Source of the DNA: Spirochaetia bacterium
GTDB lineage: Bacteria > Spirochaetota > Spirochaetia > CADAEX01
DNA length: 64,000 nt
Direction: 5' to 3'
NCBI GenBank assembly: GCA_045606105.1
Contig: JAZURI010000002.1
Location: 155,230 to 219,229, forward strand
The translations under genes were made by a program, and so were the position numbers. Shown here in pieces: positions 1,556 to 50,439 of this stretch. Numbering within the stretch: position 1 is the stretch's first letter; the number at the start of each line of letters is the position of its first letter. Below the pieces are notes generated by a model. The model was not told the DNA's origin and ran no database searches. It was given only the letters and a program-made list of their open reading frames with translations.

Positions 1556-2497
1556 TCAGAAGGGCCGGCCGCAGGCTTTCGGGGCTGAGCTCTTTCTTGA
1601 TGAAAACACAAGGGCAATCAATGTAGCTATATACGGAAACGCACCGAATACGGCTGTAGGGATATCCTGCAGCCCCGGAAAAACCCGTCCCATATTAGAT
1701 ACAGTCATACAAATACCGAAAAAGAAGGATGTCCCCAGTATTCCCAGCGGATTCCAGTGACCGAAAATCATTGCTGCAATAGCAAGAAATCCCAAACCGT
1801 TCATACCTGCTACGGCATTGAAATCTCCGGCATAAGTTACAAGAACACATGCACCTGCAAGCCCGGAAAACAATCCTGAAGCCATTACCCCCAGATATCT
1901 CATTTTTATAACATTTATTCCTGCGGAAGCAACGGCAGAAGGATGTTCACCGCACCCCCTGAGCCTGAGACCGAAACTTGTCCTGTAAAGAAGAAAAAAC
2001 ATCATTCCCCATAGTATCAGGCAAAGATATGTGGACCAGTATACATTGGAAAAGAGAAGCGGACCTATAACCGGGATTTCTGACAGAAGAGGTACATCTG
2101 TCCTGATGATTCCTCTGGTAATGTGAATATTTCCGGCACCTGTAATAACCTTGGCCATAAAGACTGTTAACGAAGAGGCAAGCATATTGACAGCAATTCC
2201 GGATATTATCTGGTCTGCCTTGAGATTGACTGCGGCAAATGCATAAAGAAGAGAAAAGATTACCCCTCCTGACATAGCTGCCAATATTCCCAGAACAACA
2301 GACAATGTAAAGGAAATCCCCGATTCCTGAAGAAGCATTACAGTCAGTGCTGAAACAAAGCATCCGATAAGCATGAGTCCCTCTATACAGAGATTTGTAA
2401 CTCCGGACCTTTCGCATATAAGACATCCCAGAGCTGCCATCAGCAGAGGCATGGTATATGTGACGGAATTCTGAAAAATAGAATAAATTATTTCCAT
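1556..2497 (-). CDS. ABC transporter permease (BMP-family nucleoside/sugar importer, YufQ/RbsC-like)
   Basis: 313 aa polytopic membrane protein. It is co-oriented with, and overlaps, the second permease, the ATPase and the BMP lipoprotein. Confidence 0.8.
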   Translation of the reverse strand: MEIIYSIFQNSVTYTMPLLMAALGCLICERSGVTNLCIEGLMLIGCFVSALTVMLLQESGISFTLSVVLGILAAMSGGVIFSLLYAFAAVNLKADQIISGIAVNMLASSLTVFMAKVITGAGNIHITRGIIRTDVPLLSEIPVIGPLLFSNVYWSTYLCLILWGMMFFLLYRTSFGLRLRGCGEHPSAVASAGINVIKMRYLGVMASGLFSGLAGACVLVTYAGDFNAVAGMNGLGFLAIAAMIFGHWNPLGILGTSFFFGICMTVSNMGRVFPGLQDIPTAVFGAFPYIATLIALVFSSRKSSAPKACGRPF

Positions 2498-3564: not shown

Positions 3565-5080
3565 TTTTTATTCCTGTCATCATAAGTCCCACCGCATTTA
3601 TATCGGTTTCTTCTCTTTTTACTATATCAATGATTTGTCCGCTGTTTATTACTGCAATACGGTCGGAAAGATTGAATATTTCATCAAGTTCAAAGGATAT
3701 CAGAAGAACCCCTTTTCCCTTGTCACGCTGCTCCACTATCATTCTGTGGATAAAACTGACAGCACCTACATCAAGTCCCCTTGTAGGCTGAACTGCCAGA
3801 AGAAGGTCGGGGTTTTCCGTTATCTCCCTTCCGATAATCATTTTCTGCTGATTTCCGCCGGAAAGAGAACCTGCGCTGCTGTCAGCACCTTCTCCGCACC
3901 TTACATCGAAAGTATCAATTATTTTTTCTGCATGACGGGTTATTTCATCAAAACAGAGGATATTGTTGCTTGAAAATTTCCCGGTATAATATTTTTTTAT
4001 CACGGCATTGAATGAGAGTGAAAAATCGGGAACCAGACCTCTTTTCAGCCGGTCTTCGGGAATATGTCCCAATCCACCTTCATTTCTTTCCCTGACACTG
4101 AGGGATGTTATGTTACGGCCGGAAAGAATTATGCTTCCTTCCGATATCCTGATGAGACCGGCCACCGCTTCCGCAAGTTCAGTCTGCCCATTGCCTGAAA
4201 CTCCGGCAATTCCCAGGATTTCTCCCTTCCGCACATCCAGGGATAAATTGTTTACAACCTTCACCCCTTTTTTGTCAACAATACTGATGTTCTTGATTTC
4301 AAGAACCTTGTTTCCGGGAACGGAAGGCTTTTTTTCCAAACTCAATGATACCGGGTGCCCAACCATCAGTGATGCCATTTCCTGTACTCCCACCGAAGCC
4401 ACATCCACTGTATCTATATATTTTCCACGCCTTATAATGGTACATTTTCCTGCCAGGGTTTTTATTTCCGCCAGCTTGTGGGTAATAAGTATGACTGATT
4501 TTCCTTCGGCAGCCAAAGCTCTGATGATTTTTATGAATTCCTTTGTTTCAGACAGAGTAAGGACTGCCGTAGGTTCGTCAAACAGAAGAATATCGGCATC
4601 CCTGTACAGCATCCTGATTATTTCCACCCGCTGCTGCATCCCCACGGTAATATCCGATATCTTCATGTCAGGTTCTATCATAAGTCCGTACTTTTCCGAT
4701 ATTTTCCTGATTCTGCGGCCGGCTTCCTCCAGGTTGTATACAAAACCTCCCTCATTTCCCATAATAATGTTTTCAGCAACGGTAAAATTATCCATAAGCT
4801 GAAAATGCTGGTGAACCATTCCGATGCCGAGTTCGAAAGCATCCTTGGGACTCCTTATGACAACATCCTTCCCTCTTATCCTTATCCTGCCGCTGTCAGG
4901 TTTTACCAGACCGAAAAGGATATTCATGAGAGTGGATTTACCGGCTCCGTTTTCCCCCAGAAGTGCGTGAATCTCCCCTTTTGCCACCTTGATGGTTATA
5001 TTATCATTAGCTTTTATCCCGGGAAAACTCTTGCAGATTCCTATCATTTCTATTTCATATCCGTTGCTATTCTCTGACAA
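3557..5080 (-). CDS. ABC transporter ATP-binding protein with duplicated ATPase domains (RbsA/YufO-like)
   Basis: 507 aa. Two Walker A motifs (GENGAGKST and a degenerate second one), an LSGGNQQK signature and a LLLFDEPT Walker B. Confidence 0.85.
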   Translation of the reverse strand: MSENSNGYEIEMIGICKSFPGIKANDNITIKVAKGEIHALLGENGAGKSTLMNILFGLVKPDSGRIRIRGKDVVIRSPKDAFELGIGMVHQHFQLMDNFTVAENIIMGNEGGFVYNLEEAGRRIRKISEKYGLMIEPDMKISDITVGMQQRVEIIRMLYRDADILLFDEPTAVLTLSETKEFIKIIRALAAEGKSVILITHKLAEIKTLAGKCTIIRRGKYIDTVDVASVGVQEMASLMVGHPVSLSLEKKPSVPGNKVLEIKNISIVDKKGVKVVNNLSLDVRKGEILGIAGVSGNGQTELAEAVAGLIRISEGSIILSGRNITSLSVRERNEGGLGHIPEDRLKRGLVPDFSLSFNAVIKKYYTGKFSSNNILCFDEITRHAEKIIDTFDVRCGEGADSSAGSLSGGNQQKMIIGREITENPDLLLAVQPTRGLDVGAVSFIHRMIVEQRDKGKGVLLISFELDEIFNLSDRIAVINSGQIIDIVKREETDINAVGLMMTGIKNG

Positions 5081-6089
5081 TTAATTCTCCCTCTGATATC
5101 TTTCTTATGACCTCTTCCAGGCTCCTTAATGTTTCATCGGAAAGATTCGGATTATTTTCCGGAATACCCATTCCGCCGTTATTCACCCCATGATATTTTA
5201 TTTCACCGCCGGGAAAATTTCCGGCAATGTAATCCAGGGCATTCCTATAGGCTACCAGAGAGACATTTTTTATTGCCGATGTAAGTATACATGATGTCCC
5301 GTCTCCCAGCTCTCCCAGACTGTATTGGTCGGAATCGACTCCGATAACCCAGACCTTGTTACCTTTCAACCTTCTGTTCTTTGCCTCGTTTATCACCCCT
5401 AAACCGGTGGAGCCTGCAGCGGCAAAGACAGCCTTGACCCCTTTTGAATAAAGAGCATTTCCCAGCTGACTGCCCAGAGCCATATCATTGAAAGAGCCGG
5501 CATAAATAAAATTGCTCCTGTCTATGATTATATTTGTTCCCAGATTACGGTTTGCATATTCAATACCCTGAATAAAACCGTTTTCATAACGGATAACCGG
5601 AGGAAGCTTTACTCCGCCGACAAAACCAAGCAGTCCTTCCTTTATTTCCAGTGAGGAAGCCACTCCGACCAGAAATCCTCCCTGCTCTTCCCTGAATATG
5701 TTTACGGAAACATTCTTTGAAGGGGCTTCCTGAGGAGTAATATCTACAAGTGAAAGGGAAAGTTCCGGATAATATCCTGCAGCTATATCAACTATATCAG
5801 AAAAGGCATATCCCGGCAGTACAATAAAGCCGTACCCCCGGTCATAAAGATCTGTAAGGCTTGAAATCCTTTCGGCTACCGACAGGTCTGCAGGTTTGAG
5901 ATATGTTACCACTGCCCCGGTTTCAGATCCTGCTTTCAGAAGCCCTTCATGGATACCCTGATTGAAGCAACGGTCATCCACACCGCCCATATCCACCAGC
6001 ATCCCCAGCCGGACTCCCTGTTCCTCCTTGCCGCGGCAGGCTGCAAAAAGGACCAGAATCAAAGCAATCAGAACCAGAATTCTTTTCAT
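5067..6089 (-). CDS. BMP-family lipoprotein; purine-nucleoside-binding protein of the ABC importer (PnrA/TmpC-like)
   Basis: Lipobox signal peptide MKRILVLIALILVLFAAC, then the Bmp/PnrA fold signature. I took the internal ATG as the start, not the longer ORF that begins at 6176. Confidence 0.8.
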   Translation of the reverse strand: MKRILVLIALILVLFAACRGKEEQGVRLGMLVDMGGVDDRCFNQGIHEGLLKAGSETGAVVTYLKPADLSVAERISSLTDLYDRGYGFIVLPGYAFSDIVDIAAGYYPELSLSLVDITPQEAPSKNVSVNIFREEQGGFLVGVASSLEIKEGLLGFVGGVKLPPVIRYENGFIQGIEYANRNLGTNIIIDRSNFIYAGSFNDMALGSQLGNALYSKGVKAVFAAAGSTGLGVINEAKNRRLKGNKVWVIGVDSDQYSLGELGDGTSCILTSAIKNVSLVAYRNALDYIAGNFPGGEIKYHGVNNGGMGIPENNPNLSDETLRSLEEVIRKISEGELIVRE

Positions 6090-6174
6090 GTTCACAGTAT
6101 ATAACAAAATTATTGTAATTGGAAGAAAAAGGTTATATATTATTAATATAATAATAAAAGATCGAGGTTTTATC

Positions 6175-6378
6175 ATGCCTACTTATGTATATGAATGCTG
6201 CAGCTGCGGAAAGGTTTCCGAGGTTTTTCAGTCCATGTCTGACGAGCCTCTGACAACATGTGAAAAATGCGGCGGAAAGATAAAAAGAATCATTCCCGGA
6301 GGCTCATCCGTAGGAATCGTGTTCAAGGGCAGCGGATTCTATTCCACTGACAATTCCCGTTCCGGAGGTAAATCCTGA
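6175..6378 (+). CDS. FmdB-family zinc-ribbon protein (putative regulatory protein)
   Basis: MPTYVYECCSCGKVSEVFQSMSDEPLTTCEKCGGKIKRII is the classic FmdB CxxC...CxxC signature. It lies 2 nt upstream of mscS. Confidence 0.75.
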   Translation: MPTYVYECCSCGKVSEVFQSMSDEPLTTCEKCGGKIKRIIPGGSSVGIVFKGSGFYSTDNSRSGGKS

Positions 6379-18149: not shown

Positions 18150-19133
18150 TCAGAAAATCATATAGGATTCGATGGAATTATCCTTCAGAAGCAATACTGT
18201 ATTGTTCACATCCATCCCTTCCGTTACGGGAATAATGACCTTGTACATTTTATTTCCGTTGGCAGGAACGGTATTTATTACAGCCTTCAGATTCAGTTCT
18301 GCAATCTTTTTCTTCATGCTGTCGGCATTTTCCATGCTGCTGAAGGAACCGACCTGAATGGCAGACGGTACGGCAATGGTCTTCTCCTCCTCGGTGCCGG
18401 AAATATCGGCATCGGCAGGAAGCTTTTCTTCGTTTTTAACGCCTGCAGGTACATATCCTGAATCGATGAAAATCCTTGACGGGGTAACGGGAAAAGAGCT
18501 CTCCCGTGCTGCCAGCTTCCCCTCAAAGCCCGATTTCCTGAGCTTTTTCTCCGCAGCTGTGCGAGTATCCTCGATTCCGTATACTGTGGCAATATCGTAA
18601 ACCAGATATACCTCTGAGCTTTCCGATGCTCCGGCCAGTACGGCATCCAGAAGAGCTTTTCCTCCGGCATTGTCCCCCTTGTAGAAAAGCAGGGCTCCCT
18701 TCATGGCAGTCGCCTTCCTGCCGTAGGTATCTGTATCCCCCTCTGCAACAATTCCGAACATTTTTTCAGCCTGCTCTGTCTTGCCTGTTTCGTGGTATAT
18801 GACACCTGCCATATAGAGATTGTCATAGGATTTAGGGCTGACTCCGTAGGCCCTCTCATAGTAGCTGCATGCAGTTTCCAGGTTTCCGGTAACATGGGCC
18901 AGATCTGCAGTTGCCCGGTAAATGCGGTATTTGTCGGTAATCCTTGCGGAACAGAAATTAACAGCCTCGATTATCCTGGACGGAGACTTTTCCAGAACAA
19001 ATATACGGTCCAGTGCCTTATCGGGACTGATTTCGGTATTACGGAGCTGCTTGTAACAGTCGCTTAATTCGTCACCGTAGAGAGGAGATGAGAGTAAAAG
19101 AAATATTATGAGAATTTCAGATAGTCTTTTCAT
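18150..19133 (-). CDS. Secreted TPR-repeat protein with a C-terminal SPOR (peptidoglycan-binding) domain
   Basis: I started at the internal ATG (MKRLSEILIIFLLLSSPLYG signal peptide). TPR-like repeats in the middle. The C-terminus AIQVGSFSSMENADSMKKKIAELNLKAVINTV...YKVIIPVT fits the SPOR domain consensus. Confidence 0.65.
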   Translation of the reverse strand: MKRLSEILIIFLLLSSPLYGDELSDCYKQLRNTEISPDKALDRIFVLEKSPSRIIEAVNFCSARITDKYRIYRATADLAHVTGNLETACSYYERAYGVSPKSYDNLYMAGVIYHETGKTEQAEKMFGIVAEGDTDTYGRKATAMKGALLFYKGDNAGGKALLDAVLAGASESSEVYLVYDIATVYGIEDTRTAAEKKLRKSGFEGKLAARESSFPVTPSRIFIDSGYVPAGVKNEEKLPADADISGTEEEKTIAVPSAIQVGSFSSMENADSMKKKIAELNLKAVINTVPANGNKMYKVIIPVTEGMDVNNTVLLLKDNSIESYMIF

Positions 19134-19386
19134 CCTTGATTTCTTCTTTTTTATCCTTTTTCTTTTCCTTTTCCTTTTTTTCCTTATTCTTGGTCTTTGA
19201 AGTAAAAACAAAAGGGAGCATAAACAGAGCACCCAGAGCAAAGGAAACAGTTACCGAAAGAAAAATCGGAACATTGCTTATTTTCCTGAATCCGAAATTG
19301 ATATCTGTGACATTGGACAGATTCATTGCGGCAAACAGGGCATATATACAGATAAATATTACAAAAACTATCATTTTTCCTTTCAT
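19117..19386 (-). CDS. Small membrane protein (two TM) with a Lys/Glu-rich C-terminal tail
   Basis: 89 aa: MKGKMIVFVIFICIYALFAAMN...FVFTSKTKNKEKKEKEKKKDKKEEIKDEKTI. Its start overlaps the miaB stop by 4 nt, which suggests translational coupling. The tail is encoded by the polypurine tract. Confidence 0.5.
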   Translation of the reverse strand: MKGKMIVFVIFICIYALFAAMNLSNVTDINFGFRKISNVPIFLSVTVSFALGALFMLPFVFTSKTKNKEKKEKEKKKDKKEEIKDEKTI

Positions 19387-20675
19387 ATAACCTCACCTTT
19401 AAGAGTATTACCCACAGCGGAAACAATTTTCACATCCATGAATGTTCCTATTTTATCACATTTTTCTGCAAATACAACCATATCATCCCCTTCAGTTCTT
19501 CCCAGAAGCTCTTTTTCATCCTTTTTGGAGACAGATTCAACAAGAACCCTTCTTACTGAACCGACCTTGCTTTCCTTCAGCTCTCCGCTTATCCTGTGCT
19601 GGAGTGAAATGATCCTGTCCAGACGGGCCAGCTTGATTTCGTGAGGAACGCTGTCAGGCAATGTACAGGCCTTTGTTCCCTCCCTGGGATTGTAATAATA
19701 GGTATATGCATCGGAATACCTGACCTTTTCCATAAGCTCGGCAGTGGCAAGCCAGTCCTCCTCCTTTTCCCCCGGAAACCCGATGAGAATATCGGTGGTC
19801 AGGGATACGCCCCTTATCTTTTCCTTTATTTCGGCAATGATATCGAGATAACGGCCGGAGGTATATTTTCTGTTCATAAGCTCCAGGATCCTGTCGCTGC
19901 CGTGCTGTACCGGAAGATGGATATGGCTGCAGATCTGCGGATATTCCGCTATGGTATCGATAAGGTCGGAGCCGAAATCCTTAGGGTGGGATGACATGAA
20001 CCTTATCCAGCCCACGGATGAGATATTCTCGCAGGTAAGCTTCAGCAATGTGGCAAAATCTATCTCCTTTCCCTTATAAAATCCACGGTAGGAGTTTACA
20101 TTCTGTCCCAGGAAGGTAATCTCCTTTACCCCCTTGCTGTCCAGAAAGCGGACCTCGTTGATAACAGCCTCGGCATCCCTTGAAATCTCCCTTCCCCGTA
20201 CATACGGAACAATACAATAGGAACAGAAATTGTTGCAGCCGTGCATTATCGGCACAAAGGCCTTGAAGCTGCTGCCGTCGGAATGGTAATCCATGAATAC
20301 ATATTTGTCGGAAGCCTTTTTTTCAGGGATTGAATCCAGATACTCCAGGATATTGTTCTTTTCAAAGGTTCCCAGTACATAATCCACAGTTCCCTTTCCT
20401 TCCCTGAGCAGCTCCTCCTTGATACGCTCTGCCATACATCCTATTATGACAAGCCTGAAATCAGAGCTTTTTTTCAGTCTCCTGAAATAACCGATACGTC
20501 CCCATATCCTGTCCTCTGCAGTCTTGCGTACAGAGCATGTGTTTATGATAACCAGATCGGCATCTGCATCCTTTGCACAGGGCTCCCAGCCCCTTTTCCT
20601 GAGGAGAAGCTCCAGCGAGTCTGATTCTGCCTTGTTCATCTGGCAGCCGTATGTTTCAAGCCAATATTTATTCAT
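19383..20675 (-). CDS. miaB: tRNA-2-methylthio-N6-dimethylallyladenosine synthase (radical SAM methylthiotransferase)
   Basis: 430 aa. UPF0004 N-domain, the radical-SAM CxxxCxxC (CNNFCSYC) and a TRAM C-domain. Confidence 0.85.
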   Translation of the reverse strand: MNKYWLETYGCQMNKAESDSLELLLRKRGWEPCAKDADADLVIINTCSVRKTAEDRIWGRIGYFRRLKKSSDFRLVIIGCMAERIKEELLREGKGTVDYVLGTFEKNNILEYLDSIPEKKASDKYVFMDYHSDGSSFKAFVPIMHGCNNFCSYCIVPYVRGREISRDAEAVINEVRFLDSKGVKEITFLGQNVNSYRGFYKGKEIDFATLLKLTCENISSVGWIRFMSSHPKDFGSDLIDTIAEYPQICSHIHLPVQHGSDRILELMNRKYTSGRYLDIIAEIKEKIRGVSLTTDILIGFPGEKEEDWLATAELMEKVRYSDAYTYYYNPREGTKACTLPDSVPHEIKLARLDRIISLQHRISGELKESKVGSVRRVLVESVSKKDEKELLGRTEGDDMVVFAEKCDKIGTFMDVKIVSAVGNTLKGEVI

Positions 20676-21387
20676 CTGTTTTCTCTTTTATGAATTTTCT
20701 AACAAGTTCCCAGTCATTGTCAATAGGGACAACAATCCAGGCCCCCTTATCAAAATCCTCATCCACATCGGAAGCCTTTAATCCGTGATGGAGAAGATTT
20801 GAATAGGTTTCGTAAAGAACATTACCCGTCCCCAGGGAAATATTCCTGATTTTCTCTATTTTACCCATGGTCCGGTAAAGTGTGTAGGCCTCTTTAAGGG
20901 AAATATCGGTTTTTGTATATCTGAAGCCGATTCTGATTATGCTGCCCAGTTTTCCGATATCTGCAACACCTATTTCCCCCAGCTTATCCTTAACTGCCAT
21001 AAGAATCTTCTGCTGTCGGTAATCCCTGGAAAAAACAGGAGTAAAATGGCGTGCCCTGGCTATTCTCAGAGCCTCTATTCCGTTTACATGATGAATTCCG
21101 GCAGGATAAAACAGTGTGGTCCAGTTGCCGTTTTCATCCCTTACCCTGTAGGTAGGATCCACAAGGGGCTCCTCCAGCTCAACATCTATTCCTCCGAGAA
21201 CATTAACCAGTTCCACAAAAGCATACATGTCCACCACCGCATGGCGGTTTATTTCAAGCCCCGTGATTTCCGAAACAGTTCCGGCCAGGGTTTCTATACC
21301 GTAGGTTCCGTAAAGGCTGTTTATTTTCTTTTTTTTGTGGTAAAGGTCTCGCGGAATACTGATAAGATTTGCATAATTTCTTTCCAT
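20668..21387 (-). CDS. LCP (LytR-CpsA-Psr) family domain ORF; the 3' fragment of a frameshifted LCP gene
   Basis: The 239 aa ORF starts MERNYANLISIPRD (the LCP SIPRD motif). Upstream of its ATG the same frame continues without a start codon as NILVCGTNQNNTDAIIIVSLD, which is the beginning of the LCP domain, back to the A9 tract at 21472-21480. Confidence 0.6.
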   Translation of the reverse strand: MERNYANLISIPRDLYHKKKKINSLYGTYGIETLAGTVSEITGLEINRHAVVDMYAFVELVNVLGGIDVELEEPLVDPTYRVRDENGNWTTLFYPAGIHHVNGIEALRIARARHFTPVFSRDYRQQKILMAVKDKLGEIGVADIGKLGSIIRIGFRYTKTDISLKEAYTLYRTMGKIEKIRNISLGTGNVLYETYSNLLHHGLKASDVDEDFDKGAWIVVPIDNDWELVRKFIKEKTDE

Positions 21388-21467
21388 ATCAAGAGATACA
21401 ATTATTATGGCATCGGTATTGTTCTGATTTGTCCCGCAGACCAGTATGTTGAACAGGTTATCTGAGT

Positions 21468-22574
21468 TCAGTTTTTTTTTACCGATGAGATAATCACATT
21501 ATCCTTGTCAAATATGTATATTTCCCCGGTGCTTTTCTCCATGGAGATCTTGCCGGCCCGGCGACCGGTACTGTCGGTAATGACAAAATCGTAGCTGTCC
21601 TCAGTTTCGGAAGGTTTTGGGGAGATTACGCAGCCTCGGATGTCAAGAAAGCTTCTGAAGGAGTCATCGTTTACCATGTATTTAAGCTCCTCCAACTTTG
21701 AAACCGCCTTTTTTTCCGCAACTGTACGGATATCGAAATGAGAATCTATGTTGAAAAGCCTTTCCTTTAGCTCATGAAGCGTACAGACTGTATCACCGAG
21801 GGTAAAGGCTCCGTTTCCGAAGCTGAATACAGCAGAACAGAGAGTGGAACCGTCGGAACGGTGAATATCATACCCTTTACTTTGATAATCATCCTGTTTT
21901 TCCTTGAGATAAAGCTTTTTTTCTTTGAGATAAGATGAAAGGGCAGGATCTTCCATTATGGCTTCAAAATCCCCCAGAAGAGGAAAAACCGCACTGAATC
22001 TTTTTGCAGTGCCGTCGTAATGCCTTTCCAGGAAGTTTCTGATATCATCGGTTCCGTTCAGAACAGCGGAATCTGAACCGTTATGGGTTTCTGCCGTTAT
22101 TTTATCCGAAACGGAAACAGTAAAGAATGCTGCTCCGCCGGACAGGAGAAATATCCTGTTTCCCCGCAGAACAGGTGTCAGGCCGTATTTTTCATACAGC
22201 CGGAGAGCATCTTCCCCTTCAGAATAAAGAAGAAGAGCCTCCCTGAGCCTGGCCTCTCCGTACTCGCTGAGAAGCCTGTCCACCGCATTGTAATAAAGGG
22301 CGTAGTCTGAACCGTCATTTTTATCTGATTCTCCGGAAGGCAGGGTGTTACCATAGGAATTTGTCTTCAGACCGAGAAATTCCCTGACCTCGTTAAGGTC
22401 ATCCCCCAGCCCGTCAACCGAAAAGTCCAGCTGATTAAGATTTCCGGCCGTCTCCTTTATTTCGGTATAAAGCCGGTTTACTGCACGGTAGGTCCGGTAA
22501 TTGAAAAAAAACAGACTTCCCACACAGATCAGGGCAAGGGTAATGATTACTGCATTACGGAGCCTTCCTCTCAT
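21468..22574 (-). CDS. N-terminal membrane-anchored region of the LCP-family protein, in the 5' reading frame (ORF ends at the A9 tract)
   Basis: 368 aa. An N-terminal TM segment (AVIITLALICVGSLFFF) then a large extracytoplasmic region. The ORF terminates ...SSVKKN* immediately after AAAAAAAAAC. Confidence 0.55.
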   Translation of the reverse strand: MRGRLRNAVIITLALICVGSLFFFNYRTYRAVNRLYTEIKETAGNLNQLDFSVDGLGDDLNEVREFLGLKTNSYGNTLPSGESDKNDGSDYALYYNAVDRLLSEYGEARLREALLLYSEGEDALRLYEKYGLTPVLRGNRIFLLSGGAAFFTVSVSDKITAETHNGSDSAVLNGTDDIRNFLERHYDGTAKRFSAVFPLLGDFEAIMEDPALSSYLKEKKLYLKEKQDDYQSKGYDIHRSDGSTLCSAVFSFGNGAFTLGDTVCTLHELKERLFNIDSHFDIRTVAEKKAVSKLEELKYMVNDDSFRSFLDIRGCVISPKPSETEDSYDFVITDSTGRRAGKISMEKSTGEIYIFDKDNVIISSVKKN

Positions 22575-23830
22575 TAATGCCTGAAACTCCTCTGGCCGGT
22601 ATAAACCATGGCGGCATTGAATTCGTTGCAGGCCTCGATGGATTCAAAATCCCTGAGGGATCCGCCCGGCTGAACCACGGCTGTTACCCCTTCCTTAAGC
22701 CCGATATCGATTCCGTCCCTGAACGGGAAGAAGGCATCGGAAACCATGATGCTTCCCTTGAGACCGCCGTTTTCAGCCTTTACCACATCCTCGATTGCCT
22801 TTCTCTTGTCAGGATCTGTAAGGTTATACCAGGATTTTGCATAAAGATCCCAACAGATTCTGTCACACATTTTCTTGTAGGCCTTGTCTCTTGCAATTTC
22901 TGCAACACCTACCCTGTCCTGCTCTCCGGTACCGATTCCCACTGTAACGCCGTCCTTTACATAGATGACGGAGTTGCTGGTTACACCGCTTTCAACAAGC
23001 CAGCCGAAGATGATATCGTCGAATTCCTTGTCTGTAGGAGCTCTGTTTACCCTGTATTCCTGACCCTTGTATTCGCATACCGCAGGGAGGAAATCCTCTT
23101 TCTTTCTTGCAACCGGAAGATAGGACCACTGGGTAATGATTCCGCCGTCAAGAATGGACTTGAAATCGAGGAAACGGGTATATGCAAACTCATGGAGCCT
23201 GTCGATATTCTTTATGCGCATAACACGGAGATTCTTCTTGGACTGGAAAAGCTCGAATGCCTTAGGTGAGAATTCAGGTGCGGCAACAACCTCCACATAT
23301 CCTTCGCATACCTGCTCTGCAGTTTCGATATCCACCTCGCGGTTAAGGATTACCGCACCGCCGAAGGCTGCAATCCTGTCTGCCATAAGGGACTTATGGA
23401 ATGCATCCACAAGAGTTTCTCCCTTGGCTACACCGGACGGGTTGTTGTGCTTGATGATGACACTGCATGGTGTATCCTGGAAAAAGCGGAGAATGTTAAG
23501 ACCGTTGTCTACATCTGTGATATTGATCTTTCCGGGATGCTTGCCGGACTGAAGAAGCTCCACATCGGAAGCAAGGTACTTTCCGTTCAGGACAGTTTCC
23601 ACACCGCCGATGGAAAGGTTGCCGTTGATAAGCTTGTACATGGCTGCAGGCTGATCAGGGTTTTCCCCGTATCTGAGTCCCAGTCTTTCCCCGCCGATGT
23701 CCCACTGCACCTTCTCGTAGCACAGGGTCTGCTTTCCGGCCTCTCCCCTGAAGGAAATATCCATGAATTCAGGAAAGGCGTCCTTGTTGATGTTCTTATA
23801 CATATCCTTGAGATTTTCTGCCATTTTCAT
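22574..23830 (-). CDS. purH: AICAR transformylase domain protein (C-terminal half of the canonical bifunctional PurH), a separate ORF
   Basis: 418 aa. LRYGENPDQPAAMY, ...SDAFFPFRDGIDIGLKEGVTAVVQPGGSLRD and ...TGQRSFRH match the PurH AICARFT domain through to the C-terminal RHFRH-type end. Confidence 0.8.
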   Translation of the reverse strand: MKMAENLKDMYKNINKDAFPEFMDISFRGEAGKQTLCYEKVQWDIGGERLGLRYGENPDQPAAMYKLINGNLSIGGVETVLNGKYLASDVELLQSGKHPGKINITDVDNGLNILRFFQDTPCSVIIKHNNPSGVAKGETLVDAFHKSLMADRIAAFGGAVILNREVDIETAEQVCEGYVEVVAAPEFSPKAFELFQSKKNLRVMRIKNIDRLHEFAYTRFLDFKSILDGGIITQWSYLPVARKKEDFLPAVCEYKGQEYRVNRAPTDKEFDDIIFGWLVESGVTSNSVIYVKDGVTVGIGTGEQDRVGVAEIARDKAYKKMCDRICWDLYAKSWYNLTDPDKRKAIEDVVKAENGGLKGSIMVSDAFFPFRDGIDIGLKEGVTAVVQPGGSLRDFESIEACNEFNAAMVYTGQRSFRH

Positions 23831-23834
23831 ATCC

Positions 23835-24512
23835 TTAGTGAAGATTATAGATTCCGGCAGCCTTTTCTGCTGTTATGCCGGAAAGGTAGTTGATGATAGC
23901 TGTATCGTATGCTGATGTCTTTCCGAAAGTAACCTTTGCAAGGCGGAATCTTTCGGCCAGAGCCATTTCACCGTTGTTAGCCTCCAGATGGCTGATGATT
24001 GCACCGTATTCTGCAGGATCTGCAACAGAAGCAACCCTGAGGTAGTTCTTGGCTGATGCCCTCAGCATGCAAGGTCCGCCGATATCGATGTTTCCTCTTG
24101 CATTTTCAGGAGTTGCATCTGCCTTTGCAACAGTCTTTTCAAAAGGATAGAGATTCACGACAATCATGTCGAAAACTGTAGCCTCTGTTCTGGCAATATC
24201 CTTCTTATGCTCTTCGTTGTAGGTTTCGCTGAGGATTCCCAGATAGATCTTGAAATCAAGGGTCTTAACCAGACCGCCCTGCATTTCAGGCTGCTTTGTA
24301 TAATCGGAAACCTGAATAAGTGTTCCCTCTGCCTTATCGCCAAGAACATCCCTGATATAGGTATATGTTCCGCCGGTGGAGTAGATTCTGATGTCAGGAT
24401 TGATGCAAACCAGCTTCCTTACAAATTCGTCCAGACCTGTCTTGTCTGAAACACTGATAAGGACATTTCTGATTTTTACCTTATCATCGATTTCTGTTAC
24501 GTTGTTGATCAT
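23835..24512 (-). CDS. purH: IMP cyclohydrolase (MGS-like) domain protein (N-terminal half of canonical PurH), a separate ORF
   Basis: I started at MINNV, with GAGGT 8 nt upstream. VLISVSDKTGL, IYSTGGT, VKTLDFKIYLGIL, VVNLYPF and NIDIGGPCMLRASAKN match the PurH IMPCH domain. The ORF ends 4 nt before the AICARFT ORF begins. Confidence 0.8.
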   Translation of the reverse strand: MINNVTEIDDKVKIRNVLISVSDKTGLDEFVRKLVCINPDIRIYSTGGTYTYIRDVLGDKAEGTLIQVSDYTKQPEMQGGLVKTLDFKIYLGILSETYNEEHKKDIARTEATVFDMIVVNLYPFEKTVAKADATPENARGNIDIGGPCMLRASAKNYLRVASVADPAEYGAIISHLEANNGEMALAERFRLAKVTFGKTSAYDTAIINYLSGITAEKAAGIYNLH

Positions 24513-24534
24513 AGTTTTACCTCTGTTTATATGT

Positions 24535-27252
24535 TTATGCACCGTGACAATGCTTGAACTTTTTTCCGCTTCCGCATGGGCATGGATCATTTCTTCCCAC
24601 CTTAGGGGTTGATCTTACCACCTGTATCTGTTTTCCGTCAGGCTGCTGAGGTGCCCTTCCCTGAGCCACATTCCTGTGTGCCGCAAACTGTGCCGATTCC
24701 TGGTGTGTAGCCACGGAGGCACTTCTCTGTCTCGGCTTTTCCTCATATTTTTCAATCCGTACATTGATTACCTTTCTGGCAATGATACGCCTTATATCCT
24801 CAATCATTTTGTCGAAAATATCGAAGCCTTCCAGCTTGTACTCCAGCAGCGGGTTCTTCTGGCCGTAGGTACGGAGATTCACCGCCTCCTTCAGGGCATC
24901 AAGAGCCTCCAGATGCTCCTGCCACTTGATATCGATGATCCTGAGATATTCCATCTTGGCAAACATGTTGAAATCATCCCTTCCTACCTTTTCAGCCTTG
25001 CTGTCCAGGTCATCGGAAATATATTTTACTATTGCTTCCTTCAGCTGCTCCGGAGTTTCGTAGGACGAAACATCAAGAACGCTGTCCGCATTGAAGAAAA
25101 GCTTTTCCCTGAAGCTCTCCAGCGCTTCCGGAATATCGGACTGCTCCTTGACCTTATCGAAGAACTCATCGGCAAAATCCTTTATGATGCCTTTGATCCT
25201 GTCAAGGAAATTCATGTCTGCAATGACATCCTCCCTCTGGGAATAGATGAACTTTCTGTGTTCGCTGAGAACATTGTCGTAATCGAGAAGATGCTTTCTG
25301 ATTTCGTAGTTTCTTTCCTCAACCTTCTTCTGGGCATTTTCTATGGATTTGCTTATCCATGGGTGACGGATTGGCTCGTTGTCCTTCATTCCCACCTTTG
25401 CCATCATGGATTTGAGGTTGTCACCGCCGAAAAGTCTCATGAGGGTATCGTCCAGAGAGATATAGAACCTGGATTTTCCCGGGTCTCCCTGACGTCCTGA
25501 ACGACCTCTCAGCTGGTTGTCGATTCGTCTTGATTCATGTCTTTCGGTACCGATAACATAAAGACCGCCCAGGGACTTGATCTCTTCGTAGTCCTTTCTC
25601 CATTTGACCATGGCCTTTTCCAGGGCCTTTTCAAATTCCTCCGGAGTTGCCTCTGTACCGGCATTTTTACGGGCTATGTATTCAGGGTTTCCACCAAGCT
25701 TGATGTCTGTACCGCGTCCTGCCATGTTTGTAGCAATGGTTACCGCACCTTTTGCACCGGCTCCTGAGATAATCATGGCTTCGCGGGCATGGTTCTTGGC
25801 ATTGAGCACCTCATGCCTGATTCCCCGTCTGCTGAGCAGCGAGGAAAGGAGCTCCGACTTCTCGATGGAAACGGTTCCCACCAGTACCGGCTGTCCCTTT
25901 TTGTAGACTGATTCTATCTCATCACAGATAGCCTTGAACTTTATCTCCTCGTTAAGATAGATCTCATCATCCATGTCCTTTCTGGCCACCGGACGGTTTG
26001 TAGGGATTACAACCACATCCAGGTCATATATCTTGGTAAATTCCCTGGCTTCGGTATCGGCTGTACCGGTCATACCGGAAAGCTTGTCATACATCTTGAA
26101 GTAATTCTGGAAGGTGATGGTGGCGTGGGTCCTGTTCTTTCTGGCTACCTTGATCTTTTCCTTTGCCTCTATGGCCTGATGGAGACCGTCGGAATAACGG
26201 CGTCCCGAAAGGATACGACCTGTGAATTCGTCAACAATCTGTACCTGCCCCTCCTGAACCACATAATCCACATCAAGATGGAAAAGCTTATGAGCCTTGA
26301 GAGCCTGTGTAAAATAATGGATATATTCAAAGTTTTCGTCTGAAAAGAGAGAGCCTTCAATAAAATGATACTTGAGGAGGAGGCTCTCGATCTTGTTCAT
26401 ACCCTCATCGGTAAAGGTAACATGCTTTGTCTTTTCCTGAAGCTTGAAATCCCCTTTGAGAAGAGCATCCTCCTCCGGATAGGTTCCTGTTTCGGGATCC
26501 TTTTCGCATTCAACCAGGAACGGAACCAGTTTGTCCACCTGATAGAACTTTTCGGTATCATCCTCGGCCGCACCGGAAATGATAAGCGGAGTTCTGGCCT
26601 CGTCGATGAGGATGGAGTCGATTTCGTCCACAATGGCAAAGCTGTGACCTCTCTGTACCCGCTGGGAATTGTTCCAGCGCATGTTGTCACGGAGATAATC
26701 GAAACCCAGCTCATTGTTTGTGGCATAGGTGATATCACATTCATAGGCCTTTCTCTTGGCCTCAAAATCCATGTTGGAAAGAACGGTACCTACGGTTATG
26801 CCGAGAAAGTTGTGGACCCGTCCCATCCACTGGGCATCACGCTCGGCAAGATAGTCGTTGACAGTGACGATATGGACTCCCTTTCCCGAAAGTGCATTGA
26901 GGTATGCGGCCGTGATACTGGCCAGAGTCTTTCCTTCACCGGTCTTCATTTCGGTGATCTTTCCCTGATGGAGAACTATTCCTCCGAGAATCTGTACATC
27001 GTACGGTCTCTCTCCCAGAACCCTTCTTGCAGCCTCACGGCAGAGGGCAAAAGCTTCCGGCAGGATATCATCCAGGGTCTCTCCCGCAGAAAGACGCTTC
27101 CTGAAATCCTCAGTAATGCCTTTAAAGTCTTCATCCCGCAGGGACAGGGCCCAGGCCTCCTTTGCATTGACCTGATGCAGCAACGGCAGCAAAGACTTTA
27201 GGTCTTTATCATGCTTGGACCCGAAAATGGCCTCAACAACTTTATCCAGCAT
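24535..27252 (-). CDS. secA: Preprotein translocase ATPase SecA
   Basis: 905 aa. DEAD-like motor ([16 protein letters not shown]), the preprotein cross-linking domain, and a C-terminal zinc-binding tail [14 protein letters not shown]. Confidence 0.9.
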
Positions 27253-27410
27253 ATAATCCTCCGAAAATATAATACAGCAAAACTACCTAATACACAAGTA
27301 AACTGTAAAATTTTAAAATTTTATTAAACCTTGGAGCAGGAATTCCGATATATATAATGTCGAGGAAATATAGTTCCCCTCCCAGTTAACTATATTCAAG
27401 TCGATTCTTC

Positions 27411-27440
27411 GGGCTGATTGAAAAATCAGCCTTTTTTTTT
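27411..27440 (+). terminator. Rho-independent terminator on the plus strand (GGCTGATT-gaaa-AATCAGCC followed by T9)
   Basis: Perfect 8-bp stem, 4-nt loop, then nine T residues on the + strand. No annotated + strand gene lies upstream, so it may end a small RNA or form the other half of a bidirectional terminator. Confidence 0.45.
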
Positions 27441-27452
27441 ATCCCTGAAGAC

Positions 27453-27485
27453 AAAAAAAAACCTTGGTCCGACATAGGACCAAGG
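27453..27485 (-). terminator. Rho-independent terminator of the EF-G paralog gene (CCTTGGTCC stem, T9 on the minus strand)
   Basis: On the minus strand GGACCAAGG-tatgtc-CCTTGGTCC is followed by nine T residues, about 32 nt downstream of the stop at 27517. Confidence 0.6.
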
Positions 27486-27516
27486 AGTTTGTCAATAGAG
27501 TTAAATCAAGGATAAA

Positions 27517-29601
27517 TCAGGCCTGTGCTGCCTCTCTCTTAGCCTTTGCGTCTGCAATTACTGCCTCTGCAATCTTTCCTGTTACCGGACTGTAATGATC
27601 GAATTCAACTTCGAAGGAACCGGTTCCTGATGTAAGAGAACGGAGATCAATTGCATATCTGAGAAGCTCTGCCTGTGGTACTTCTGCATTTACCTGCTGG
27701 ATTCCACCTCCCATGCTGTCCTGACCAAGTACTTTTCCTCTCTTTGAACTGAGATCTGAAAGAACATCTCCGAGATACTGGTCATCCACAAAAACTGAAA
27801 GCTTCATAACAGGCTCCAGGAGAACAGGAGAAGCCTTTTCAATAACTTCGCGCAGACAACCTTTCGCCGCCAGTTTGAATGCCATTTCCGATGAATCGAC
27901 AGGATGTTCCTTACCGTCAAAAAGATTTACCTCTATGTCCACAATCGGATATCCTGCAAGAACACCTTCCTGCATTCCTTCCGCAATACCCTTTTCAATA
28001 CCAGGAATGTAACCCTTTGATACGGCACCACCCTTGATAGTATTGATGAATCTGAGATATTCGCCTCTTTCGATAGGCTGGATCTCAAAATGAACCTCAC
28101 CGAACTGACCGTGACCGCCGGACTGTTTCTTGTGTCTATAGCTTCCGGATGCCTTCTTGGTGATTGTTTCCCTGTATGCAACCTGAGGAACCTTTGTAAC
28201 AATCTTGATTTTCTGCTTGTCGCGGATCTTGTCCAGAATCATGTTGATCTGGAGCTCACCCATTCCGGAAATGATGGTTTCCTTTGTTTCTGTGTTATAG
28301 GAAATACGGAATGTGTTATCTTCCATTGCTGCCTTCTGCATGAACTGGCTGAGCTTGTCCTCATCCTTCTTGTCAACAGCGGATACTGTTACAGAGAATG
28401 TAGGGGTAGGAAGTCTGAGAGGGATGAATCTGTTCTTCAGTTCACCTGTGAACAGTGTGTCATTAGTCAATGTAAGAGGCATCTTTGATACGATACCGAT
28501 ATCTCCCGCTGTAAGCTCCTTGACTTCCATGAGCTTCTTACCTACCGCTGTATAGATCTTTGTTACCTTTTCCTTCTTTCCTTCCCTGAGGTTCATGAGT
28601 TCGGTATCCTGAGTAATGGTACCTGATACACATTTCCAGTAGGAAAGCTTTCCGGAGAACTGGTCGATGGTTGTCTTGATTGTGAAAACCTTGATATCTC
28701 CGTCCGGTGTGATAGGGGTAGGAATCTTGTTCATTTCTTCATCGAGAAGAATGTCGTTGAATCCGAGAGGACACGGTGAAAGCTCTGCAATGAAGTCGAT
28801 AAGAGCTGCAATACCTGAGCATACAGCTGCAGAACCGCAGAGAACAGGAGCAATCTTGTTGTCGCGGAGACCTGCCTGGATAGCCTTCTTTACATCCTCA
28901 ATGCTGAGAGTTCCCTCTTCAAGATATCTTTCCATGATTTCATCGTCGCCCTCTGCGGCTCCTTCAATCATGATTTCCTTGAATTCATTTACCATATCGG
29001 CATATTCTGCAGGAATTTCAGTTGCTGCCTCGATTTTTCCGGAAGCAGGAATCATGTAAGCCTTGTCGTTGAGAATATCGATGACTCCCTTGAAATCCTT
29101 TGCATCGCCGACAGGGATTGTGATAGGAACAAATGTCTTTCCGAATTTCTTCTTGATATCGTCAAGAGCCGCCTGATATGATGCCCTGTCCTTGTCCATC
29201 TTGTTGATGAAAACAAATCTAGGGATATTTCTTGAATCAAGACGCTGCCAGAGTTTCATTGTTTCAATCTGGGCACCTGTATCGGCACCAACCAGAAGCA
29301 GACCTGTCTCACATGCTCTGAGACCGAGAATAACCTCTCCCACGAAATCGGAAGCACCCGGAGTATCTACGAAGTTAAGCTTTTTATCATCTTTAAAAAT
29401 ATGAGATAATGTTGAATGGAATGAAATTTTCTTTTCAATTTCTTCTTCTGTATAGTCACTTACGGTCTTGCCGCTTTCTGTAGTTTCTGCCTTTGAAATC
29501 ATACCACCGGTGAACAGAATCTGCTCAAGCAAAGTTGTTTTACCTGTGCCGACATGTCCGGCCAATGCTGTGTTTTTAATTTGTTCAGTAGTAAATTCCA
29601 T
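27517..29601 (-). CDS. Elongation factor G paralog (EF-G2-like translational GTPase) with divergent G motifs
   Basis: 694 aa with full EF-G five-domain length. G1 is AGHVGTGKTT, G3 is VDTPGASDF (His to Ala), G4 is NKMD. The domain IV/V region is conserved (GGHGQFGEVHFEIQP...). Confidence 0.8.
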   Translation of the reverse strand: MEFTTEQIKNTALAGHVGTGKTTLLEQILFTGGMISKAETTESGKTVSDYTEEEIEKKISFHSTLSHIFKDDKKLNFVDTPGASDFVGEVILGLRACETGLLLVGADTGAQIETMKLWQRLDSRNIPRFVFINKMDKDRASYQAALDDIKKKFGKTFVPITIPVGDAKDFKGVIDILNDKAYMIPASGKIEAATEIPAEYADMVNEFKEIMIEGAAEGDDEIMERYLEEGTLSIEDVKKAIQAGLRDNKIAPVLCGSAAVCSGIAALIDFIAELSPCPLGFNDILLDEEMNKIPTPITPDGDIKVFTIKTTIDQFSGKLSYWKCVSGTITQDTELMNLREGKKEKVTKIYTAVGKKLMEVKELTAGDIGIVSKMPLTLTNDTLFTGELKNRFIPLRLPTPTFSVTVSAVDKKDEDKLSQFMQKAAMEDNTFRISYNTETKETIISGMGELQINMILDKIRDKQKIKIVTKVPQVAYRETITKKASGSYRHKKQSGGHGQFGEVHFEIQPIERGEYLRFINTIKGGAVSKGYIPGIEKGIAEGMQEGVLAGYPIVDIEVNLFDGKEHPVDSSEMAFKLAAKGCLREVIEKASPVLLEPVMKLSVFVDDQYLGDVLSDLSSKRGKVLGQDSMGGGIQQVNAEVPQAELLRYAIDLRSLTSGTGSFEVEFDHYSPVTGKIAEAVIADAKAKREAAQA

Positions 29602-29685
29602 AAATAAGACCTCCTCTTTAACTACCTTTATATGATAAAAGGCACTTCAGGGAGTTGTCAACCAAAAAATGGATTTCGTTGAAAA

Positions 29686-30060
29686 TTAGTTGTTTTTAAG
29701 GGAATTTATGAAATTTTTGAGGCAAAAAAAGCTTTTTTCACTGATATCATGCTCGATTTTACATGCATCAGAGTCAGCAGTTTCTGCATCCACCCCTATT
29801 TTTTCCAGAAAGTCTGCAATTACCTTATGTTTTTCATAAATACGGTCTGCAATTTTCTTTCCTTCATCGGTAAGGGAAATGGATGAGTCACTGTTGATGG
29901 TTATGTAACCTGCATCTGCCAGAGAATGTACCGCGGCGCTGACCGAAGGCTTGGAGAATCCCATGGCCCGTGCTATATCGACGGAGCGTACCTTTTCCTT
30001 TTCACCCTGGAGAACCACGATGGTCTCCAGGTACATTTCTGCAGATTCCTGAATTTTCAT
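29686..30060 (-). CDS. DtxR/MntR-family metal-dependent transcriptional repressor (short MntR/TroR type)
   Basis: 124 aa. The N-terminal wHTH (MYLETIVVLQGEKEKVRSVDIARAMGFSKPSVSAAVHSLADAGYI) is followed by a metal-binding/dimerisation helix region with conserved E, H and D residues. Confidence 0.75.
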   Translation of the reverse strand: MKIQESAEMYLETIVVLQGEKEKVRSVDIARAMGFSKPSVSAAVHSLADAGYITINSDSSISLTDEGKKIADRIYEKHKVIADFLEKIGVDAETADSDACKIEHDISEKSFFCLKNFINSLKNN

Positions 30061-31229
30061 TACGGCTTAAGCTCCGACATGATGTCTTCGTTGGTTGAGA
30101 TAGGGCTGTTGTTTTCCTTTGCAATATCGTAGGCTGTCTTTCCTTCGCCGGACTTGGCTGTAATGTCAGCCCCTTCCTCAAGAAGGGTTTCGATCATTCC
30201 CACAGATTCGCTGAAAAGGGCTGCAACCATAAGCGGTGTCATACCTCTCGGATCCCTGCCGTTTACATCGGCACCGGCCTTGATAAGGTTCTTTGCAATC
30301 ATTGTGTTGCTGTTCTTCATGGCAACATACATGAGTGCTGAAAGTCCGTTCTTGTCGGTCTGCTTCGGATCTGCTCCCAGCTCCAGAAATGTATCAATTA
30401 CTTCAGAGTTGAAGTTATAAGAACATGCATAGAGGAACGGTGAGAAACCGGCCGGTGTCATATCAGAAACAGAAACTCCCAGTCCGTGGAGATATTTTAT
30501 AACTTCAGGGTTAGGATTGAAGCATGCGGCCATGATCATCGGTGTGAAATCTTTTACACGGCAATTGTAGTCTGCCCCTTTTTCCACAAGCATCTTAAGG
30601 ACATCCACATTGTGGTTTGACATTGCAGTCTGCATTATAACCGGATATCCCTTCCTGTTTTCGGCATTCATGTCTGCACCCAGGGAGATAAGGGTTTCGG
30701 CAACCTTTGGGTTTTCGTTCTTGGTAACCGCGAACATAAGGGCTGTGAATCCGTCGATGTTCCTGTCTTCAAGATCGGCTCCTGCCTCCACGAGAACCTT
30801 GATGACATCGGTCTTGATATTTCCGCCGGCAGCTGCCATAAGAGGGGAAAGTCCGTCCTTGTTCTTGAGGTTCACATCTGCTCCGGCCTTGATAAGCTCG
30901 TTGAAGATTTCGATATTTGTTGTGGTCTGGGCTGCAAAGAGGAGAGCTGAATCGCCGTGGATATCAACCTCGTTTACCTTTGCTCCGTGCCTGAGAATAA
31001 TCTTAACTGCCTCCAGGGCATTGTCGTTCTGTGCAGCAATCATGAGAGGAGTTGTATAAAGCTCTCCGCTTCCGCTGTTGACTCTGGCACCGTCTTTGAT
31101 GGCCTGTTCAATGGCTTCAGGATTATTCTGTCTTACTATCTCGGCAAAAGCATCAGACTTCTTGTCACAGAATGCTGCAACCGGCATAACAAAGGCAATG
31201 AACAATACAAATAATTTTTTTAACATCAC
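30060..31229 (-). CDS. Ankyrin-repeat protein with a signal peptide (probable lipoprotein)
   Basis: 389 aa. Signal/lipobox VAAFC, then about 10 tandem ANK repeats ([27 protein letters not shown]...). It overlaps both flanking genes in an operon. Confidence 0.7.
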
Positions 31230-50206: not shown

Positions 50207-50217
50207 GAGGCTTCAAA

Positions 50218-50415: not shown

Positions 50416-50439
50416 ACAAAAAATTAAAGGAGAAGAATT

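Follow-up and report, generated by a model that had tools for sequence, protein, structure and literature searches.

Canonical PurH/ATIC carries its two activities on one chain. On the minus strand of the 64-kb stretch of spirochaete DNA analyzed here (the window), they are divided between two adjacent open reading frames, which raises the question of whether these represent a genuine pair of genes or a fused purH that has been broken, and of what their products do. Our results confirm that the purJ-purV split is real and conserved, and that neither faulty assembly nor a recent nonsense mutation accounts for it. We consider, with a probability of about 0.9, that the locus carries a stable two-gene version of PurH, in which purJ is predicted to encode an IMP cyclohydrolase (IMPCH) and purV a 10-formyl-tetrahydrofolate-dependent AICAR formyltransferase (AICARFT). 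The relevant features are the following:

24535..27252, minus strand: secA, recognized from its translation and from the SecA Pfam domains in a syntenic related locus (L001)
23835..24512, minus strand: purJ, predicted standalone IMP cyclohydrolase (MGS-like PurH N-domain), 225 aa plus TAA
23825..23837, minus strand: junction, comprising the purJ TAA and a 10-nt spacer, GGATATGAAA; a Shine-Dalgarno (SD)-like AAGGA overlaps the stop
22574..23824, minus strand: purV, predicted standalone AICAR formyltransferase (PurH C-domain), 416 aa plus TAA
21468..22574, minus strand: orf368, a membrane-anchored 368-aa protein of unassigned function, its start codon overlapping the stop of purV (TAATG)

The first frame (ORF1) appears in the ORF list at 24590..23835, but we place the start of purJ at the ATG at 24512, giving 225 aa, since orthologues measure 225–226 aa and the longer reading would overlap the secA stop at 24535. 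The protein terminates in ...AGIYNLH, followed by the TAA at 23837-23835. ORF1 matches positions 3–200 of the 510 positions of the PurH profile NF002049 (E 2.8e-59), with Pfam matches to MGS and to the start of AICARFT_IMPCHas, while ORF2 matches positions 199–511 of TIGR00355 (E 5.7e-68) and carries PF01808 at residues 76–311 (E 1.5e-57). PurH is thus divided exactly at its inter-domain linker (198/199), as had been proposed from the sequence. Assignment to the canonical bifunctional PurH equivalog was rejected, the two ORFs scoring 201 and 270 bits against NF002049 (cut-off 402) and 195 and 230 bits against TIGR00355 (cut-off 528).

On the minus strand the junction reads CAC TAA GGAT ATG AAA ATG GCA GAA, with one ATG (23830) lying 4 nt past the purJ stop and a second (23824) lying 10 nt past it. 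The original prediction had purV starting at the second ATG, in a different frame and 4 nt after the stop; the change of frame stands (the second ATG is out of frame with ORF1, with an offset of 13 nt), but the distance of 4 nt belongs to the first ATG. The choice of the second ATG itself is well supported. Indeed, a strain that is 96% identical, represented by four independent assemblies, has ATT in place of the first ATG and keeps the second, while more distant orthologues begin with MAENLKDMYK directly after GGAG (junctions of the form TAAGGAG...ATGGCAGAA, with an 11-nt spacer) and independent gene callers also give a purV of 416 aa. The SD-like AAGGA ends 7 nt before this second ATG, the right distance for such a site, again in agreement with what had been claimed.

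Fused purH is the norm, being found in 85% of bacterial genomes according to Cruz et al. (Genome Biol Evol 11:1235, 2019; PMC6486802), and the window was judged from its assembly; in principle, the two frames could stem from a mistake in sequencing or assembly, or from a mutation that recently turned a fused gene into a pseudogene. This explanation is effectively refuted, and with it the idea of a disrupted purH. The purJ stop, the spacer length and the frame shift are identical in the four assemblies mentioned above, despite 4% nucleotide divergence. Both halves are under purifying selection, with dN/dS values of 0.016 for purJ (against the related locus L086) and 0.018 for purV. For each gene, all of the 120 nearest homologues are standalone, no fused orthologue occurs among 85 related loci, and PurJ is devoid of a fused AICARFT domain here, in the four assemblies and in 59 related loci. 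In other species the spacer length and the frame vary, yet the orthologues are always split. The original claim of a genuine split rather than a nonsense mutation is therefore borne out.

The related spirochaete genomes, which had been suggested as a check, carry the same arrangement. Among loci with enough flanking sequence, purJ and purV are adjacent and unfused, in any frame, in 22 of 23 cases in Spirochaetota and in all 35 in Desulfobacterota; the spacers between them range from -8 to 595 nt. In PVC/Planctomycetota, the two genes are unlinked (17/17 loci, as well as one Kiritimatiellae purJ locus), and purV of PVC bacteria often adjoins folD. Fused proteins close to the PurV subfamily were rare in a representative search; the IMPCH loop is degenerate in P0258 (600 aa), canonical (RVKTLHP) in P0337 (561 aa) and divergent (DGLIKTL) in P0284 (550 aa).

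The original prediction presented a split PurH as unusual, a view that does not hold. The two-gene arrangement is already known: Cruz et al. named purJ and purV in 2019 and proposed them as a replacement for purH, and the PurV subfamily of the window occurs in at least 579 GTDB species. Thus, having been described in 2019 and being present in hundreds of bacterial species, the split is ordinary. As reported in that work, the pair is present in 44 of 1,266 bacterial genomes, including all sampled Desulfobacterales, and some standalone purV genes are accompanied by purO instead of purJ. The locus studied here is of the same kind, with IMPCH and AICARFT on separate genes that often lie outside pur clusters, and the subfamily of the window is itself present in Desulfobacterales, at 60–63% identity. 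It differs in that the main-text taxonomic tables of PMC6486802 list purV/purJ without Spirochaetes or PVC, whereas the present case comes from a rumen-type Spirochaetia, and in that the subfamily loop, the PurV extension and insertion and the folD linkage presented below were not described in that paper. A further literature search returned archaeal papers only, and none on spirochaetes.

Both proteins resemble canonical PurH/ATIC (TIGR00355, NF002049; PDB 1g8m, 1p4r, 3zzm, 4ehi and 1zcz) in their domains, in the order of these domains (IMPCH first), in catalytic residues and in fold, but form two polypeptides where the canonical enzyme is one. PurJ aligns to residues 2–200, approximately, of PDB PurH/ATIC chains with E values of 1e-29 to 1e-36. 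Residues K66, Y104, D125 and K137 of human ATIC, whose importance for IMPCH is shown by mutagenesis (cited in PMC3261824), correspond to K83, Y122, D143 and K155 of PurJ, and are invariant in an alignment of 14 family members. PurJ is inferred from its sequence to be a standalone PurH-type IMP cyclohydrolase, with a predicted FAICAR to IMP activity. A natural precedent exists in Archaeoglobus fulgidus, whose unfused PurH2 (AF1811) is a standalone PurH-type IMP cyclohydrolase that is active in vitro and complements E. coli (PMC6797443); this protein is archaeal, and its partner is the folate-independent PurP rather than PurV. The unfused PurH1/PurV of bacteria, according to the same work, have never been characterized biochemically.

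For PurV, the sites compared were the catalytic K267/H268 (positions in the avian 1g8m chain, equal to the human numbering cited in PMC3261824), the AICAR-binding R208/Y209, the SN motif, FFPFRD and the C-terminal R...H. The PurV residues R51-Y52, K125-H126, N284, FFPFRD (F365-F366-P-F-R-D), R412 and H416 align to PurH/ATIC and do not vary across 15 family members; all substrate-binding residues of AICARFT are kept. The AF2 model of PurV (pLDDT 79.7) matches 4a1o, 3zzm, 4ehi and 1g8m with a Foldseek probability of 1.0 and a TM score of about 0.65, at about 27–29% identity to PurH/ATIC chains in the structural alignments. PurV exceeds the bacterial AICARFT domain by about 100 aa, and has a family-specific, conserved N-terminal extension of about 48 aa as well as, near residues 318–352, an insertion of about 35 aa. 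The NCBI equivalog model NF005492/PRK07106 (390 aa) also describes a standalone AICARFT-domain protein; PurV was rejected as a member, since it reaches 125.5 bits where the cut-off is 415 and only its residues 358–418 (the C-terminal 60) align well, and the two are, by sequence, different subfamilies. PurV would thus be a standalone AICAR formyltransferase with 10-formyl-tetrahydrofolate as its predicted formyl donor. In relatives, folD (12 loci), fhs (4) and folE2 (6) are recurrent neighbors of purV or of purJ-purV, which is consistent with folate-dependent formyl transfer.

Not all of the active site is canonical. The loop that reads GGRVKTLHPxIHGG in canonical enzymes is GGLVKTLDFKIYLG throughout the PurJ subfamily, with invariant substitutions at the positions of human R64 (to L), H69 (to D), P70 (to F) and H73 (to Y). 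These changes, together with the conserved extension of PurV and its insertion, could suggest that function has been modified in this subfamily, either through another substrate for PurJ (the PDB contains a standalone IMPCH-like protein with a different role, ForH of formycin biosynthesis, 6nko) or through an obligate non-covalent PurJ-PurV complex involving the PurV extension, the oligomeric state of both proteins being itself a prediction. We regard this as highly improbable, given that the four IMPCH mutagenesis residues and all AICARFT substrate-binding residues are kept, that the folD and fhs neighbors fit canonical chemistry, and that the genes of PVC bacteria, being unlinked, speak against assembly during translation being strictly required.

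The surroundings of the pair bear on its expression and its role. secA ends 22 nt before the start codon of purJ, and orf368, which gave no match in Pfam and NCBIfam scans, follows purV in related Spirochaetia as well (syntenic loci L001-L004 and L086). A scan of positions 19000–30000 gave a single convincing minus-strand terminator, a hairpin upstream of secA (27485-27462), and no terminator-like site between purJ and purV. In the same region promoter-like matches were no commoner than in shuffled sequences, and the operon structure is therefore read from spacing alone; secA is probably the first gene of a transcription unit shared with purJ and purV. Independent regulation of the two activities, which the original prediction had envisaged, is unlikely in view of the tight, co-directional secA-purJ-purV-orf368 arrangement with no terminator-like site between purJ and purV. 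Translational coupling of purJ and purV is plausible from the 10-nt spacer and the SD overlapping the stop; it does not appear to be a conserved requirement, since other loci show such a wide range of spacers and PVC bacteria keep the two genes apart. No ZTP or other riboswitch was found near the genes: Rfam searches at gathering thresholds returned tRNA-Phe only in the window, and only an unrelated Flavo-1 RNA in 16 related loci, among them loci with folD or with long purJ-purV spacers.

As originally stated, no other de novo purine gene turned up in the window (Pfam scans of 40 large ORFs), and it does contain a Bmp/PnrA-type ABC transporter (1556-6176, Pfam scan). The flanks of the 85 related loci show no recurrent pur gene either. 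De novo purine synthesis is absent from some spirochaetes that live in association with hosts. Taken together, these points could indicate an orphan pair, in which case the rest of the pathway would be missing, PnrA would import nucleosides, and purJ-purV would serve only to convert AICAR/ZMP, such as that arising in histidine synthesis, back to IMP. This seems unlikely to us. In a genome of several Mb, a 64-kb stretch without pur genes carries little weight, the lack of a ZTP riboswitch in the window and the 16 loci speaks against such a role, and the same subfamily is present in free-living Desulfobacterales and Victivallis. PMC6486802 reports that 63% of purV, purJ and purO genes are found away from pur clusters, even in genomes whose pathway they presumably complete, so that missing pur neighbors are no evidence for salvage; the same report finds that the purJ/purV pair anticorrelates with purH. 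It is equally doubtful that the pair is the sole remnant of the purine pathway, serving AICAR/ZMP-to-IMP recycling alongside nucleoside import from within a secA-purJ-purV-orf368 housekeeping operon; separately, and just as tentatively, the PurJ loop and the N-terminal extension of PurV may have evolved to let the two proteins work or assemble non-covalently.

The stable two-gene PurH is thus our preferred reading, carried by gene structure, homology, catalytic residues, fold, purifying selection and a split conserved across phyla. In the mechanism that we propose, purJ and purV would be co-transcribed in that order, probably with secA upstream and orf368 downstream, as their spacing suggests; PurV would formylate AICAR to FAICAR, which PurJ would then cyclise to IMP. 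The 10-nt spacer with its SD on the purJ stop would favor similar amounts of PurJ and PurV. If both proteins are similarly abundant, the split should cost little, since PurH/ATIC shows no channelling and the separately expressed halves of the human and Staphylococcus enzymes are active (PMC6797443).

The significance of these results beyond annotation quality is small. In NCBI records the purV half is labelled 'IMP cyclohydrolase' and the true cyclohydrolase half 'hypothetical protein', and since both halves fall below the PurH equivalog cut-offs, pathway reconstructions may wrongly score such organisms as lacking purH. The PurV subfamily is a reasonable target for biochemistry, although no open question hinges on it. 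For the organisms concerned, our analysis confirms that purine steps 9 and 10 are placed on two well-conserved genes across many Spirochaetota, Desulfobacterota and PVC bacteria.

On the minus strand of the window, positions 22574-24590 hold two successive ORFs, purJ and then purV, which lie in a tight co-directional string of secA, purJ, purV and a 368-aa protein gene, followed by genes for an LCP-family transferase and MiaB. The features concerned are:

24512-23835, minus strand: purJ, encoding a predicted 225-aa standalone IMP cyclohydrolase
23837-23835, minus strand: TAA stop of purJ, following the C-terminus ...AGIYNLH
23824-22574, minus strand: purV, encoding a predicted 416-aa AICAR formyltransferase
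21468-22574, minus strand: gene for a 368-aa protein, membrane-anchored at its N-terminus

As listed, the purJ ORF begins at 24590; because the ORF would then share its 5' part with the end of secA, whose stop lies at 24535, and purJ orthologues measure 225-226 aa, the start is placed at ATG 24512, as originally predicted. At the junction, the minus strand reads CAC TAA GGAT ATG AAA ATG GCA GAA, with the two genes in different frames. The mechanical ORF list puts the purV start at the first ATG (23830, 418 aa); the second (23824) yields a 416-aa protein, MAENLKDMYK.... The second ATG, which was the start proposed, is supported by four assemblies from a strain with 96% identity, in which the first ATG is ATT and the second is retained, by orthologues at 86-92% identity, which carry TAAGGAG-N7-ATGGCAGAA and whose protein begins MAENLKDMYK, and by independent gene calls of 416 aa. 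The SD-like AAGGA, noted originally about 7 nt before this ATG, overlaps the purJ stop and ends 7 nt 5' of the ATG. The original prediction described the two ORFs and their junction accurately in all details.

PurJ aligned to positions 3-200 of the 510 in the PurH profile (E 2.8e-59) and also matched Pfam MGS, and PurV aligned to positions 199-511 (E 5.7e-68), with Pfam AICARFT_IMPCHas at 76-311; therefore the break falls in the inter-domain linker, where it had been placed. The split is genuine, as had been argued, and neither an assembly artefact nor a pseudogene. Indeed, the runs SRR29277939, -40, -52 and -62, assembled separately and representing the strain with 96% nucleotide identity to the window, contain the same 225-aa and 416-aa pair, TAA and 10-nt spacer. 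The dN/dS values against this strain were 0.016 for purJ and 0.018 for purV, and those against more distant orthologues were at most 0.125 wherever dS was unsaturated. The best 120 database homologues of PurV are proteins of 414-434 aa carrying PF01808 alone, with the exception of a 507-aa protein fused to unrelated domains (79% of the query covered), and the best 120 of PurJ span 221-245 aa; neither set includes a fused PurH.

In a representative library clustered at 50% identity, the clusters nearest PurV are standalone proteins of 403-431 aa, and canonical fused PurH (~500-540 aa) first appears at ~216 bits, mixed with fragments and further standalone proteins, aligning in two pieces because of an insertion in the PurV subfamily. 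Only rare fused forms score higher. Two rare fused PurH-like proteins of the library, P0258 (600 aa, IMPCH loop degenerate) and P0284 (550 aa, IMPCH loop DGLIKTL), have an AICARFT half resembling the PurV subfamily, and may be intermediates or re-fusions bearing on the evolutionary history of the split.

Residues important for human cyclohydrolase activity, K66, Y104, D125 and K137 (PMC3261824), were located in PurJ by aligning the profile of a 14-member family with human ATIC (1p4r) and counting chain positions; their counterparts are PurJ K83, Y122, D143 and K155, none of which varies among the 14 members. The active-site loop of PurJ (residues 79-92, encoded within 23835-24512) is GGLVKTLDFKIYLG, invariant across the standalone subfamily alignment, whereas canonical PurH/ATIC have GGRVKTLHPxIHGG; relative to human ATIC, R64 is replaced by L, H69 by D, P70 by F and H73 by Y. 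In PurV, all 15 family members share without variation R51-Y52 (the R-Y of LRYGENP), the catalytic pair K125-H126 (chain positions K267/H268 in avian 1g8m), N284 of the SN motif, FFPFRD and the C-terminal R412...H416, and these align to PurH/ATIC structures. The subfamily also has a conserved extension of ~48 aa at the N-terminus and a ~35-aa insertion. The AlphaFold model of PurV (mean pLDDT 79.7) matched PurH/ATIC of M. tuberculosis, C. jejuni, T. maritima, bird and human in Foldseek with probability 1.0 and TM ~0.65.

Within the string, 22 nt separate the end of secA from purJ, and the stop codon of purV and the ATG of the 368-aa protein gene overlap (TAATG at 22574). The sole convincing minus-strand terminator in the scanned stretch 19000-30000 lies upstream of secA. 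The gene order recurs in related Spirochaetia, where the 368-aa protein, which has no Pfam or NCBIfam match, is conserved directly 3' of purV (376, 391 and 368 aa in loci L001, L004 and L086). A Pfam scan of forty large ORFs of the window identified housekeeping functions (EF-G, EF-P, tRNA synthetases, RuvAB, PriA, TsaD, QueA, Trk and others) and no other pur gene, in line with the original prediction, which had also noted a PnrA-type importer; a Bmp/PnrA-type ABC transporter is at 1556-6176. Apart from tRNA-Phe, Rfam detected nothing in the window; a ZTP riboswitch was found neither there nor in 16 related loci. Elsewhere, a 389-aa protein consisting almost wholly of ankyrin repeats (30060-31229, minus strand; Ank_2, E 6e-52), of a kind uncommon in free-living bacteria, is encoded next to malic enzyme and aminotransferase genes, and ~1.5 kb at 50207-51680 hold no ORF of ≥150 aa on either strand and no Rfam match.

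With one genome per GTDB species, the PurV subfamily was found in at least 579 species, the best 80 of which belong to Spirochaetota, Desulfobacterota, Victivallales/Lentisphaerota, Kiritimatiellia, Verrucomicrobiota and Latescibacterota and include the cultured Desulfobotulus alkaliphilus and Candidatus Marispirochaeta associata, as well as a Victivallis vadensis MAG. Linkage was traced by tblastn and ORF tracing at 85 loci. The same split holds in related spirochaetes, with an unfused purJ directly upstream of purV at 22 of 23 Spirochaetota loci, as at all 35 Desulfobacterota loci with enough flank; at the 17 PVC/Planctomycetota loci this was never the case, purJ being absent within ~4 kb, and one Kiritimatiellae purJ lies in an unrelated neighbourhood. 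The distance between adjacent purJ and purV varies from -8 to 595 nt, all three relative frames are represented, and no purJ-purV fusion occurred among the traced loci. A ~240-aa HD-domain protein is conserved immediately upstream of purJ at 15 Desulfobacterota loci (within L024-L085, e.g. L085 187-909).

When flanking ORFs were clustered and then assigned by Pfam, recurrent neighbours were folD at 12 loci (L005, L045, L064, L083, L014, L016, L018, L019, L025, L032, L015 and L068), formate-THF ligase at 4 and folE2 at 6, which are genes for making 10-formyl-THF. In PVC bacteria and Brocadiaceae folD immediately precedes purV, and folD-purJ-purV occurs in Marispirochaeta and other spirochaetes. 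At L015 an 828-nt unannotated stretch separates fhs-folD from the purV downstream of it, and L068 has folD-folE2-purV. The combination of folD with purV or purJ-purV is a recurrent one-carbon/purine module, and these neighbours fit a putative role of PurV as folate-dependent AICAR formyltransferase. No other pur genes recurred in these flanks.

The idea that an orphan purJ/purV pair serves AICAR/ZMP salvage draws on one point, that pur neighbours are lacking, as is usual for these genes, and we consider this idea unlikely. According to the survey of 1,403 genomes by Cruz et al. 2019, which named standalone purJ (IMPCH) and purV (AICARFT), 63% of these genes are located outside pur clusters. 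The combination was found in 44 of 1,266 bacterial genomes, more than any other bacterial alternative to purH, and every sampled member of the Desulfobacterales, Desulfovibrionales, Prevotellaceae, Fervidobacteriaceae and Thermodesulfobacteria has it (PMC6486802). Desulfobacterales carry the same PurV subfamily as the window. In earlier work on archaea, fused PurH was described as 'almost uniformly' used by non-archaea and an unfused PurH1 as still uncharacterised (PMC6797443, PMC3261824). The two-gene arrangement is already known and common.

In the most likely mechanism, PurV would convert AICAR and 10-formyl-THF to FAICAR, which PurJ would cyclise to IMP. Fused PurH does not channel FAICAR, the halves of human, avian and Staphylococcus PurH are active when separately expressed, as is the naturally unfused PurH2 of A. 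fulgidus (PMC6797443, PMC3261824); therefore, separation should have no functional effect as long as the two proteins are co-expressed. Coupled or re-initiating translation is plausible in the window, with its short spacer and an SD overlapping the stop; since spacers reach 595 nt and the genes are unlinked elsewhere, the family does not require it.

Beyond what the main text of the survey describes, the distribution reaches Spirochaetota and PVC bacteria, purJ and purV are unlinked in the latter, folD/fhs linkage occurs, and the subfamily has its own PurJ loop GGLVKTLDFKIYLG and PurV extension and insertion. Public names are misleading: in NCBI homologue tables, the ~417-aa AICARFT-domain PurV is called 'IMP cyclohydrolase' and the ~225-aa PurJ 'hypothetical protein'. 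Neither window protein falls in the canonical PurH equivalogs or the NF005492 standalone family, the latter being rejected for PurV, because their scores lie below the cut-offs; automated pathway calls may therefore miss steps 9 and 10.
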